Positions 3,815 to 33,023 of a stretch of 64,000 bases of DNA are shown piece after piece. The DNA is taken from NCBI GenBank assembly GCA_964489065.1, contig CAZAXH010000005.1, forward strand, positions 26,094 to 90,093, read 5' to 3'. The stretch is from an uncultured Planctomycetales bacterium. Its GTDB lineage: Bacteria; Omnitrophota; Gorgyraeia; Zapsychrales; JANLHA01. The notes beneath the pieces were generated by a model. It saw nothing but the letters and a program-made list of their open reading frames with translations. It had not been told where the DNA came from and did no database searches. How positions within the stretch are numbered: the stretch's first letter is position 1; each line of letters starts with the position of its first letter. The position numbers were made by a program, and so were the translations under genes.

Positions 3815-4605
3815 TGAAAAGTAAAGCGCGTGGCAAGACGTTTCGTTTTTTTGGGGTCTTTGTGTTGGTGGGGGTTTTAGCCGCTGGATGGCTGTGGCTC
3901 GACCGCCACTACACCGTCCCCATTATTATGTATCATAATATTGAGCCGAATCCGGCCGGGAAGGCGGATACCGTCAGTCCGGAAATATTCCTCCGGCAAA
4001 TGGATTTTCTAAAAACGCGCGGCTACCGGGTAATTTCCCTGGATGATCTTGTCCGGGGCATCCAAGCCGGACATCCGCCCGGGAGAAAATCCGTGGTTTT
4101 GACTTTTGACGACGGGTACGAAAATAATTATACGAATGTGTTCCCGCTGTTGAAAAGATACGGGTTCCCCGCCATGATTTTTATTTCCCCGGATTTCTTC
4201 GGGGAGGTCGGTTTCCTGTCTTTAGAGCAGATTTTGGATATGCAGAAGGCCGGCGTTCAATTCGGAAGCCACGGCATGTCCCAGGCGTATTTGCCTGATC
4301 TCCCCGATGACCAGCGGTATCTGGAAGTCTGGGAGAGCCGACGGATTCTTATGGCAGATCTTAACACCAATGTGGATTATTTCTGCTATCCTGTCGGCGG
4401 GTTTAATGACAGGATTAAAGACCTTGTTCGCCGGGCGGGATATCAGGGCGCCCTGGCCACAAACCGCGGCTACGACCGTTTTAACCAGGATGTATATGAA
4501 TTAAAACGCATCCGGTTTAGCGATAAAGATAAGTCACCCATTGTGCTCTGGGCGAAACTTTCCGGGTATTACAACCTTTTTAGAAAATTAAAAAATCCGG
4601 AATAG
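3815..4605 (+). CDS. Polysaccharide deacetylase (NodB-homology domain) with N-terminal membrane anchor
   Basis: An N-terminal TM segment FRFFGVFVLVGVLAAGWLWL is followed by the NodB motif VVLTFDDGYENNYTNVFPLLKRYGFPAMIF. The track ORF (3742) starts inside the upstream gene; the ATG at 3815 is the first start after the yqeY stop. Confidence 0.7.
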
Positions 4606-10125: not shown

Positions 10126-10145
10126 GGCTGCAATGCGGAAAATTC

Positions 10146-10398
10146 TTTTATTCAATGAGCATTTAGTTTACACGACCGAAGGGAGTGTAAACTAGAAATG
10201 CGAATTGATCCTTCAGGGCGAGAGAGCCCAAGCGAACGAGCCGAAGGATGGTGGTTTCAATACATGACCCAGGGAGTGTAAACTAGAAATGCGAATTGAT
10301 CCTGAGGGCGAGAGAGCCCAAGCGAACGAGCCGAAGGATGGTGGTTTAATCCCCCGCAGCTTGCTACGGGGGATTGGGTCCAGAGCTTGCTGTGGGGG
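10146..10398 (+). repeat. Structured intergenic repeat element, copy A; contains two tandem ~91-nt units (10181-10257 and 10272-10347) and two 3' hairpins with an AGCTTGCT loop
   Basis: This is near-identical to 29047-29220 (ttttattcaatgagcattta[g/a]tttacacgaccgaagggagtgtaaa...gcgaattgatcc...aagcgaacgagccgaaggatgg...ccccgcagcttgct...gagcttgct...gggg). It has internal inverted repeats (tttacac/gtgtaaa; atccttc/gaaggat; gggc-gagaga-gccc). No ORF is conserved between copies. Confidence 0.7.
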
Positions 10399-10468
10399 TC
10401 ATGCCTTTGATTTCCTGATTTTTGGCCTTCTTATTCCGGGGATCGCCCAGGCCGACGACATCCGTGAT

Positions 10469-10993
10469 GTGAAGCCTCCTGTTGCTTTGCCCGGGTCTCA
10501 GGGAATTTGGATCGCGGTGCTGATTCTGCTTTTCCTGGGAGCGTTGGCGTGGGCGTTGCGGACCATGTCGCGCCGGCGTTCGGCCCCGCCCCCGGCTGCC
10601 CCGCCTCCGCCTCCCTGGGAGGTGGCCCTTCAGCGTCTCCAAGCCTTGAAGGATGCGGGGTTCCCCGGGGGGGAGGACGTGAAGACGTTTTACACGGAAT
10701 TATCCGATATCCTTCGCCGGTATATGGAAGGGCGTTTTCAGATTAAGGCCCCGGAGATGACGACCGAAGAGTTTTTGGCTCGTCTGAAGAATACCCCCGC
10801 CCTCGATAATCACCATAAATTATCTTTGCAGGATTTTTTGAATTGTTGTGACAGGGTGAAGTTCGCCAGGTTCTCATCGTCGGTTTCGGAGATGGAGCAC
10901 GGACTGAATTTGGTCTGGTGGCTGGTTTCAGAAACGCAGCCGCCGGCCTCGCACGCCGGGAATGGTGAACAACGCGTGATGGTGTCAACTTAG
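10469..10993 (+). CDS. DUF4381-like membrane protein of the Bat operon (start uncertain)
   Basis: A hydrophobic anchor, IWIAVLILLFLGALAWAL, is followed by a Pro-rich linker and the C-terminal EEFLARLKNTPA...LQDFLNCCDRVKFARF. Its position between DUF58 and BatA matches canonical Bat operons. The track ORF start (10289) lies inside the repeat element and is rejected; the GTG at 10469 is the first plausible start. Confidence 0.5.
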   Translation: MKPPVALPGSQGIWIAVLILLFLGALAWALRTMSRRRSAPPPAAPPPPPWEVALQRLQALKDAGFPGGEDVKTFYTELSDILRRYMEGRFQIKAPEMTTEEFLARLKNTPALDNHHKLSLQDFLNCCDRVKFARFSSSVSEMEHGLNLVWWLVSETQPPASHAGNGEQRVMVST

Positions 10994-28874: not shown

Positions 28875-29046
28875 AATATGTCCTTCTGGCGGATGGATGA
28901 TGCGCTGGCCGGTTTCCGCTCAGGCTGTTTTTTTTGCCGCATAGATTTTTTATTCCCAGGATGGTACTGCTATCTTGGCACAGGTTGCCGCGGTTTAAAA
29001 GGCTTTTTTGGTGTAAATCCAGCCCGGGTGTCCCGGCAAGGGCTGA

Positions 29047-29220
29047 TTTTATTCAATGAGCATTTAATTTACACGACCGAAGGGAGTGTAAATGAGAGAT
29101 GCGAATTGATCCTTCAGCGAGAGAGTAAAAGCGAACGAGCCGAAGGATGGGGGTTGAATCTCTTTGGGTAAATTCCCCGCAGCTTGCTGCAGTTCATTGA
29201 GCCCGGAGCTTGCTCCGGGG
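29047..29220 (+). repeat. Structured intergenic repeat element, copy B (single unit plus two 3' hairpins with AGCTTGCT loops)
   Basis: Near-identical to 10146-10257 plus the 3' hairpin portion of copy A. The hairpin stems differ between copies while the loop AGCTTGCT is conserved (cccgg-AGCTTGCT-ccggg here; cccccg-c-AGCTTGCT-a-cggggg in A). Confidence 0.7.
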
Positions 29221-29393
29221 TTTATACCTTTTATTATGTCTTTGACCGGATGTCCTTTTATAGGGGGCAGGACGGCTTGGGGGGTGTTTCTGCGGTTTTC
29301 TTAATATGTTTTGATCAGGGATGACTTGGATTTTGGCCTTTTTCCCCGGGTGTGCGCCCGAAAACCGGCTGAAAGCCTTTATAAAATAATATG

Positions 29394-29422
29394 TTGAAAA
29401 AAAAAAGATTGTTAGGTATACT
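29394..29422 (+). promoter_or_regulatory. Candidate sigma70 promoter of the rpsB-tsf-pyrH-frr operon (TTGAAA-17-TATACT)
   Basis: ttgaaa at 29394-29399, a 17-nt spacer, then tatact at 29417-29422. The roughly 210-nt leader downstream contains three stable hairpins (see the next feature). Confidence 0.5.
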
Positions 29423-29635
29423 AGGGAAACTATTTTTTGGCCGGAATAACTTTGGGAAAGAAGGGAGAAGAGTTATTCCAGATGGCCAGGAGTCCGGGAA
29501 GGGCCCGGGCCGATACAGCGGCGGGGCGGTTCGGCATCCGCTGTATTGTCAATAACGATAACTTCACTTATGCTCGCTTGATAAAGGGAAGTCCTTTATG
29601 TTTCCCATAAGTGATCAAAGCACGAGGAGGAAAAG
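29423..29635 (+). promoter_or_regulatory. Structured 5' leader of rpsB (possible r-protein autoregulatory element)
   Basis: Inverted repeats ggaataactt/aagagttattcc (29443-29479), atacagcgg/ccgctgtat (29504-29536) and cacttatg/cataagtg lie just upstream of the RBS GAGGAGG and the ATG at 29636. Confidence 0.3.
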
Positions 29636-32407: not shown

Positions 32408-32480
32408 GACCCACTAGCTCATGTGGTAGAGCACAGCCCTTTTAAGGCTGGTGTGCCGCGTTCGAGTCGCGGGTGGGTCA
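32408..32480 (+). tRNA. tRNA-Lys (anticodon UUU)
   Basis: Manual fold: acceptor GACCCAC/GTGGGTC, D-arm GCTC...GAGC, anticodon stem CAGCC/GGCTG with loop CTTTTAA, T-arm CCGCG-TTCGAGT-CGCGG. Total 73 nt, no encoded CCA. Confidence 0.8.
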
Positions 32481-32715
32481 CTGATTTTTTCCAGTCACGA
32501 AGATGTCCTTTAGATGAAATTTTACGCATGACCTTGCCAGTGCCTGATCTTTTTCAGGCCCGGTCCCCGGCTCCCACGATATGATCGGAATCCTGCGAAG
32601 AGAGTGAGGCTTAGGTGTCCTTGCAGGAAAACATTATGTCGGGATAAACGTGTGGAATTTTTGCGCGGGATCGCGTTTTGGATTTAAAATAAAGCGGGAA
32701 GATAGATCATCTAAA

Positions 32716-32797
32716 GGGCGGATGGCGGAATTGGTAGACGCGCATGCCTTAGGAGCATGTGAGGAAACTCGTGGAGGTTCAAGTCCTCTTCCGCCCA
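32716..32797 (+). tRNA. tRNA-Leu (anticodon UAG), long variable arm
   Basis: Acceptor GGGCGGA/TCCGCCC, anticodon stem CATGC/GCATG with loop CTTAGGA, an extra arm, and T-loop GGTTCAAGTCC. The boundaries are approximate (±2 nt). Confidence 0.7.
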
Positions 32798-32949
32798 TGG
32801 TTTTCATGGCGCGGGGAGGTTGCAACCGCGGTCGGTTTCTCATTTGATGAAAATGAGGCGTTATTGCCGGGTAAGATTTATTTTTCCTTGAATTCTTGAA
32901 GAAATATAAATCTTGGGTTATAATTCAAAACAATAATACTTTATTCTTT

Positions 32950-33023
32950 GCGGCGGTAATTCAGTTGGCTAGAATGCCACCTTGCCAAGGTGGATGTCGT
33001 GGGTTCAAATCCCATCCGCCGCT
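32950..33023 (+). tRNA. tRNA-Gly (anticodon GCC)
   Basis: Acceptor GCGGCGG/CCGCCGC with U73 discriminator, anticodon stem CCACC/GGTGG with loop TTGCCAA, T-loop GGGTTCAAATCCCAT. Followed by a T-run. Confidence 0.8.

Follow-up and report, generated by a model that had tools for sequence, protein, structure and literature searches.

The repeat found at two loci of the window (the whole 64,000-nucleotide stretch of DNA that was analysed) is a small non-coding, multi-copy sequence. Rather than being a new RNA gene, it most likely belongs to a general kind of selfish mobile element that is already known. In the reading that we favor and hold to be fairly probable, it is a lineage-restricted, non-coding, non-autonomous mobile DNA repeat of composite build that spreads in trans, likeliest by a single-strand route. 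It is a new lineage-restricted family among the small interspersed bacterial repeats, in which two known themes are combined slightly unusually, and it has spread recently within a single uncultured species of Omnitrophota. Beyond the cultured model bacteria, the cataloguing of small interspersed repeats is poor, and our literature search found no report of one from Omnitrophota.

Composite build of the repeat

The original prediction had described a stretch shared by two loci on the same strand, and a repeat search in the window bore this out: copies A and B share long blocks at 76-92% identity in the same orientation (families D3 and D7), and for the 22-mer AAGCGAACGAGCCGAAGGATGG the window has three occurrences where 0 are expected. 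The extents given there, 10146-10398 and 29047-29220, were correct as to location and a little too short at the right-hand ends, since the similarity reaches 10412 and 29235 (D7). According to the family alignment, the element proper occupies 10152-10411 (copy A, two units) and 29053-29234 (copy B, one unit), both on the plus strand. The tandem unit proposed for locus A was recovered as the block pairs 10180-10212/10271-10303 and 10215-10257/10305-10347, with a period of 90-91 nt (D1, D6). The gene context had also been read correctly, with the order MoxR-DUF58-element-DUF4381-BatA-BatB at locus A and activase-element-rpsB promoter-rpsB at locus B. The features of the two loci are as follows.

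10133..10195, plus strand: stranded ancestral start of the DUF4381 gene; ATG at 10133, 7 nt past the DUF58 stop, reading into the element as far as TAG 10193-10195 (20 codons)
10147..10151, plus strand: 5' flanking (target-adjacent) motif TTTAT of copy A, part of the ancestral T-rich sequence in the empty site
10152..10166, plus strand: head of copy A (TCAATGAGCATTTAG), conserved across almost all copies
10167..10261, plus strand: unit 1 of copy A; S1 TTTACAC 10167-10173 / GTGTAAA 10185-10191, ATGCGAATTGATCC, S2 GATCCTTC/GAAGGATG, AAGCGAACGAGCC
10262..10350, plus strand: unit 2 of copy A (tandem duplicate); ATG 10289 opens a 234-codon frame into the DUF4381 body
10351..10411, plus strand: tail of copy A; hairpin 1 at 10351-10372 and hairpin 2 at 10380-10395, both with CTTG loops; end TTGAT 10407-10411
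29048..29052, plus strand: 5' flanking motif TTTAT of copy B, from the family alignment
29053..29067, plus strand: head of copy B, from family conservation
29068..29160, plus strand: single unit of copy B; S1 29068-29092, ATG 29099, S2 29108-29115 / 29142-29148; the orthologous copy in the related metagenome-assembled genome (MAG) has 5 units
29161..29234, plus strand: tail of copy B; hairpin 1 at 29177-29192 and hairpin 2 at 29202-29219; end TTTAT 29230-29234
29394..29422, plus strand: rpsB promoter-like site TTGAAA-17-TATACT downstream of copy B, conserved in element-free relatives

All reasonably complete copies are built of a head, 1-7 tandem units of 89-95 nt and a tail. The head comprises 15 nt, and the tail is about 60-70 nt long and terminates in ...GGGGTTTATACCTTTGAT. 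Within each unit, hairpin S1 consists of TTTACAC, GA, CC, a hypervariable 3-4-nt loop, GG, GA and GTGTAAA; it is followed by the invariant ATGCGAATTGATCC and by stem S2 (GATCCTTC ... GAAGGATG), which encloses about 28 nt with GCGAG(A/T)GAG, followed by three variable bases and then by the invariant AAGCGAACGAGCC. In the tail there are two CTTG-loop hairpins with GTTCATTGA between them, and GTTCATTGA is complementary to TCAATGAGC of the head. Among the inverted repeats originally listed, tttacac/gtgtaaa and atccttc/gaaggat proved to be conserved throughout the family, while gggc-gagaga-gccc is specific to locus A and not conserved.

Some copies lack a tail or carry another 3' sequence. A different 3' module, AAACCC(G/A)AA(G/C)AGAAGAATTC..., replaces or precedes the usual tail in L015 (about 4380-4405) and L024 (about 2640-2750), and L011 and L013 have an alternative junction, ATACCCCACTCCC, in common; the family is somewhat mosaic. 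Two near-identical elements are fused tail-to-head in L021 (3196-3488), with a TTTTATT common to both (...ACCTTTTATTCAATGAGC...). The members of this fused pair carry identical rare variants, which indicates a local duplication of the whole element.

The expectation that no open reading frame would be conserved was confirmed. The array periods are 89, 90, 91, 92 and 95 nt, not all of which are multiples of 3, and the frames differ between copies; a protein-coding repeat was therefore rejected, and the element encodes no protein. A translated 7-unit array, compared with a protein database in a search for spurious ORFs on related repeats in other genomes, gave no match. No terminator was consistently detected by scanning (copy A has a single weak site across its end, copy B has none), and a promoter scan at set spacing rules found none in the element; by eye only, TTTACA-15 nt-TAAACT spans S1.

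Copies, empty sites and strand preference

The distribution of the repeat was determined by scanning 185,579 representative genomes, at the species level, with a pattern of two blocks drawn from those conserved parts that are unpaired. Of the 24 matching stretches, 22 came from one MAG, Candidatus Omnitrophota Go_SlDig_bin_317, where they occur on both strands and frequently form arrays of 2-5 hits spaced by about 90 nt; the other two had longer gaps and no further similarity and are chance matches. A metagenome scan yielded true copies from three sources only, an activated-sludge assembly and two JGI samples, and the contigs carrying them were about 100% identical to Go_SlDig_bin_317. Viral contigs scanned with the element pattern gave chance matches only. 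The related MAG and the source metagenomes together hold at least 40 distinct copies, and after deduplication 48 element records and 78 distinct units were obtained. Within the two very large collections scanned with the exact pattern and the five relatives scanned with a profile, the repeat is known only from one species-level lineage.

The original prediction had left room for the case that only the two loci of the window exist, and the copy count speaks otherwise. A simple segmental duplication, which the presence of just two loci within the window might suggest, was rejected because the sister genome has at least 40 dispersed copies. Together with a protein-coding tandem repeat, against which the 89-95 nt periods, the varying frames and the empty protein-database search all argue, this explanation can be given next to no weight.

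The flanking DNA of the window genome is 94-95% identical to that of Go_SlDig_bin_317, which marks the two as sister strains or species. The number of units at locus B is 1 in the window versus 5 in the MAG, and at locus A it is 2 in both; unit number might be of use as a strain marker. Walking outward in the window genome revealed a further orthologous copy to the left and no further one to the right. This third copy, about 1.6 kb left of the window start (L092 1-120, compared with L062), sits between a stop codon and the terminator hairpin of that gene. Its tail is complete in the MAG population, while the window genome lacks it together with 16 nt of flank; the short-read contig of the window genome stops within the copy, an example of how the element breaks short-read assemblies. 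The two strains were not seen to differ in which sites carry the element: the three that can be compared are occupied in both, a point against the mobile-element reading.

To see the sites as they are in relatives, we used about 120 kb of orthologous regions from five relatives, with 76-80% identity to the window in the activase and 79-92% in the DUF58 protein. A search of this DNA with nhmmer --max found no copy and no diverged copy, and self-comparison of the relatives' loci detected no other interspersed repeat family. The activase-rpsB spacer of the relatives is without the element, with conserved blocks on both sides, and the empty site at locus A, TTTTTTTTAT/TTTTGATTTCGGGC (the slash marks the insertion point), is compatible with insertion after TTTAT without duplication. 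The element is an insertion, and both orthologous sites are empty in relatives. With at least 40 dispersed copies, empty orthologous sites and a strain-variable unit number, the earlier proposal of a lineage-specific miniature mobile or repetitive element is supported, and the family is the trace of a mobile-DNA burst that took place very recently in one species-level lineage.

The boundaries are defined by short motifs. The 5 nt before TCAATGAG read TTTAT in 22 of 32 heads and are unrelated or partly related in the rest; conservation sets in with TCAATGAG and continues inward. Of 28 tails, 18 terminate in TTGAT and 7 in TTTAT, and the next base is T in 27 of the 28. Since left flank and right end differ at one position (T versus G) in most copies, they do not represent a per-site duplication. 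Neither the flanks of the copies nor the empty site of locus A gave evidence of a target-site duplication, though a duplication of 1-3 T at the insertion site is possible given the unstable lengths of the T-runs. There are no terminal inverted repeats, the ends TCAATGAGCATT... and ...TATACCTTTGAT not being inverted, and head and tail are complementary only over 9 nt, in a segment that lies about 45 nt away from the 3' end. Insertion took place in T-rich DNA, immediately 3' of TTTAT. Several heads adjoin a terminator-like hairpin with its T-run or the 3' end of a tRNA gene, which a preference for T-rich targets would explain. The window itself has a cluster of three tRNA genes (32408-33023), and in the MAG one 7-unit copy directly follows a tRNA 3' end (L012).

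The copies also show a pronounced strand preference. When the elements were masked, 38 of 42 copies lay on the G-rich strand of their own locus (p = 6e-8), and the element keeps to the skew even at loci L002, L017 and L057, whose coding sequence is mostly on the opposite strand. Among 15 copies between co-directional ORFs (heuristic ORF calls), 12 are in sense and 3 in antisense orientation. The GC skew of the genome is large, about 0.10-0.15, and within the window (1-64000) it is unusually strong and uniform, with values of +0.07 to +0.17 in every 8-kb block. It is positive even across an 8-kb block dominated by the minus-strand activase and is therefore not simply a coding-strand effect. We infer that the skew reflects replication, and the whole window appears to lie on one replichore.

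Known repeats, route of spread and competing readings

The boxB module of the pneumococcal BOX repeats is about 45 nt long, compared with about 90 nt for the unit described here. The BOXA1R primer sequence had no match within 3 mismatches, a limited test of homology that covers this primer and not the full box consensuses. In its architecture, the element resembles BOX. BOX elements are composite repeats of the form boxA-(boxB)n-boxC, in which the number of boxB modules varies between strains, and several further likenesses are described for them (PMC3049150): a fixed 5' module, variable tandem internal modules and a fixed 3' module; predicted RNA stem-loops with a self-folding internal module; no clear target duplication; copies that can modify or create reading frames; and a lineage-restricted distribution with some tens to about a hundred copies. 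BOX is reported to carry terminal inverted repeats similar to those of ISSpn2, whereas the Omnitrophota element has none, and neither a TTTAT flank nor a GC-skew strand bias is among the BOX features described in that paper (PMC3049150).

The ends and the orientation point to another group. As outlined in PMC10055086, the insertion point of IS200/IS605 elements is 3' of a short motif (TTTAT for ISGst2), and a related motif is found at the right end (TAM/TEM); the elements carry subterminal palindromes on the active strand, and protein-less derivatives, the PATEs, are mobilised in trans. Their preference for the lagging-strand template leads to an orientation bias (PMC5027513). The Omnitrophota element has the same left-flank pentanucleotide as the ISGst2 TAM and a similar right end (TTGAT/TTTAT), it is without terminal inverted repeats or evident target duplication, and it has subterminal hairpins on one strand and a non-coding, multi-copy form, all as described for that family (PMC10055086); its orientation bias is likewise consistent with one replication strand (PMC5027513). 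An internal array of tandem units, present here, is not mentioned for PATEs in that paper (PMC10055086).

The distance of the subterminal hairpins from the end is 15 nt on the left and 16 nt on the right. In IS608, the left and right subterminal hairpins are similar to each other, whereas in our element the left hairpin, TTTACAC...GTGTAAA, is unlike the right one, CCAGAG CTTG CTCTGG. Neither a Y1 transposase nor TnpB was found in the sampled DNA: tblastn with IS200 TnpA and ISDra2 TnpB queries gave no match in the fetched sequence, which amounts to about 0.9 Mb and covers the genome in part and with bias. Because the hairpins are dissimilar and the enzyme was not found, we do not file the element as a member of the IS200/IS605 family.

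Other small repeats resemble it in part. Like a classical MITE, the element is small, non-coding, multi-copy and absent at the orthologous sites of relatives; the terminal inverted repeats and site-variable target duplication of that class are not found in it. Mycobacterial MIRUs are tandem units of 40-100 bp in operons, with a strain-variable number and short frames that abut the stop or start codons of their neighbors. The abutting of short frames and neighboring stop and start codons is seen at locus A as well, but MIRUs are without a defined head and tail and their sequences are unrelated. The BrickBuilt MITE of Porphyromonas gingivalis has a similar leader-repeats-tail organization, is intergenic and species-restricted and occurs in tens of copies, but it is composed of a 23-nt repeat with small inverted-repeat ends in place of a structured unit of about 90 nt without inverted termini (PMC4596501). 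The bcr repeats of the Bacillus cereus group are also small, lineage-specific and mobile with TTTAT at the insertion site (PMC6542083); their sequence is unrelated, and a tandem-unit build is not described for them in that paper.

Our preferred account of how the repeat spreads is built on these comparisons. Copies would be moved in trans by an enzyme encoded elsewhere, and the most likely route would be the strand-specific 'peel-and-paste' of single-stranded DNA, as in IS200/IS605 and the protein-less PATEs. A Y1/HUH transposase would read the subterminal hairpins on one strand, cut after the flanking pentanucleotide and after the similar pentanucleotide at the right end, and insert the element into the lagging-strand template. 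The number of units would drift by slippage or unequal recombination, as for boxB in pneumococcal BOX, and effects on the host would be side effects, such as mRNA hairpins when a copy is co-transcribed or, at locus A, a gene parted from its start codon. If this signature of single-strand transposition holds, BOX-like composite repeats would be extended to that mechanism.

A structured RNA family, consisting of discrete small RNAs or cis-acting mRNA modules whose unit hairpins show invariant loops to a partner and which are kept by the host, has part of the evidence on its side. RNA folds of both regions are stabler than those of shuffled sequences (z = -3.6 and -5.1), and when S1 and S2 were imposed on the units, 85% of cells paired and 23 double-change cells were counted versus 9.3 in shuffles, a value that none of 500 shuffles reached. 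All of this covariation comes from two pairs, the base of S1 (columns 2-29: GC 23, AU 11, GU 6) and a pair of S2 (columns 50-81: UA 45, GC 7, AU 1), and the shuffle control is generous and overstates it because the copies are related paralogs that fall into subfamilies. The RNAalifold consensus of 63 distinct units is weak (-2.46 kcal/mol, 10 pairs). The original prediction of an RNA family had rested on covarying stems of the tail hairpins. The two hairpins and their CTTG loops are indeed present, and the CUUG loop on both would suit an RNA, but covariation of the stems received no support across 27 distinct tails: 89% of cells pair, and the single double-change cell, which is copy B of the window itself and thus not a property of the family, is reached by 241 of 500 shuffles. 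In the 9-bp head-tail helix, 89% paired, every departure breaks the pairing. Both G.U-type and A.C-type mismatches occur in the stems, so that no strand-specific RNA signal is evident. The element matches no Rfam family: at gathering thresholds the whole window gave three tRNAs only, and at E up to 10 nothing was hit at locus A and three chance-level hits were obtained at locus B.

It also counts for an RNA that the differences between orthologs cluster at the usual variable positions while the invariant blocks are unchanged. This very uneven variation, with invariant blocks beside a hypervariable S1 loop, is seen among the copies as well; it suggests constraint beyond the decay of dead copies and is a point against the mobile-element reading. 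On the other hand, orthologous copies are 88% identical versus 91% for flanking intergenic DNA and 95-97% for flanking genes, and thus diverge about as much as the intergenic DNA around them. The sense orientation of 12 of the 15 copies between co-directional ORFs would agree with transcription as RNA, but three copies are antisense to both neighbors, copy B lies upstream of the rpsB promoter, and the element is absent at both orthologous sites in relatives, one of them inside coding sequence. In our reading, the hairpins and sequence blocks are under real constraint, but this does not suffice to place the constraint on RNA, and we regard a structured RNA family as an unlikely explanation. Still less likely is an array of protein-binding DNA sites (for a regulator, a recombinase or a nucleoid-associated protein, for example), with the number of units tuning occupancy and with three GCGA-type boxes per unit (GCGAATTGA, GCGAGTGAG, GCGAACGAG) and a GATC site as the functional parts. 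The invariant blocks are mostly outside the stems, the unit alignment contains three similar 9-mers per unit at 15-17-nt spacing, and the hairpins at the element ends, which are stable as single-stranded DNA, form equally on either strand, all of which would be in keeping with such sites. However, no known binding motif was recognised, the 38/42 strand bias is unexpected for double-stranded binding, the conserved flank and end motifs are left unexplained, and the element is absent from close relatives and inserted into a coding region.

A bolder form of the preferred mobile-element reading takes the copies to be IS200/IS605-type protein-less elements whose units and tail are transcribed as an omega-RNA-like scaffold that guides a TnpB/IscB-type nuclease to the 3' flank. 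Flank and end motifs, compared with the bases 5' of the hairpins, revealed no consistent guide-pairing co-variation by eye, and we consider this extension improbable; if true, a tandem scaffold of variable number would be an architecture not described before. A CsrA sponge based on AAGGAUG motifs was dropped, the GGA motifs being inside stems and the only CsrA-like tblastn match being weak. That match, at 3313-3405 of L015, is to the conserved CsrA core (E = 0.02, 48% over 31 residues).

Genes next to the two copies

At locus A the element separates a gene of the Bat operon from its start. In relatives, the DUF4381 gene begins 4-8 nt past the DUF58 stop, and its protein starts with MQEFFLFLISGFFVPAMAWADDIRDV. 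The ancestral ATG (window 10133) is retained to the left of the insertion in both the window and the MAG, and the element is inserted after about the seventh DUF4381 codon, within TTTTTTTTAT/TTTTGATTTC. The body of the gene downstream of the element (gene coordinates 10133-10993) is intact and the DUF4381 domain is present; just past the junction, the changes between window and MAG are mostly synonymous. From the element to the conserved DDIRDV there is no canonical start codon, and the only in-frame starts, ATG 10289 in unit 2 and a TTG near 10361 in the tail, are both inside the element. ATG 10289 is preceded by GGGAG 12 nt upstream. The 20-codon frame from the ancestral start (10133-10195) stops 2 nt before the ATG of unit 1, and the 27-codon frame from that ATG (10198-10281) stops 7 nt before the ATG of unit 2. 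The same arrangement is found in the related MAG (L016).

Judged from these reading frames, the DUF4381 gene probably survives by a translation start inside the element, and the chain of short frames would offer re-initiation of translation as a possible route. An insertion of this kind can sever a gene from its start codon without destroying the gene. In a milder version of a functional role than the omega-RNA scaffold, the conserved GGGAG-12 nt-ATG of the unit may serve as a portable translation start; if so, the element could land in the 5' ends of genes without killing them, as at DUF4381.

At locus B, the promoter-like site of rpsB is downstream of copy B, which therefore lies outside the rpsB leader. 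The block CTATCTTGGCACAGGTTGCCGCGGTTTAAAAGGCTTTTTTGGTGTAAA (28957-29010), located in the intergenic DNA that separates the activase gene from copy B, is almost invariant in the relatives with 76-80% identical activase. The sigma-54 consensus has a spacing two bases longer than TGGCAC...TTGC in this block, and a sigma-54 reading of it was dropped for that reason. Rfam has no family for the rpsB leader (29394-29635), and in this region the promoter-like site and the leader of about 210 nt are strongly conserved across relatives.
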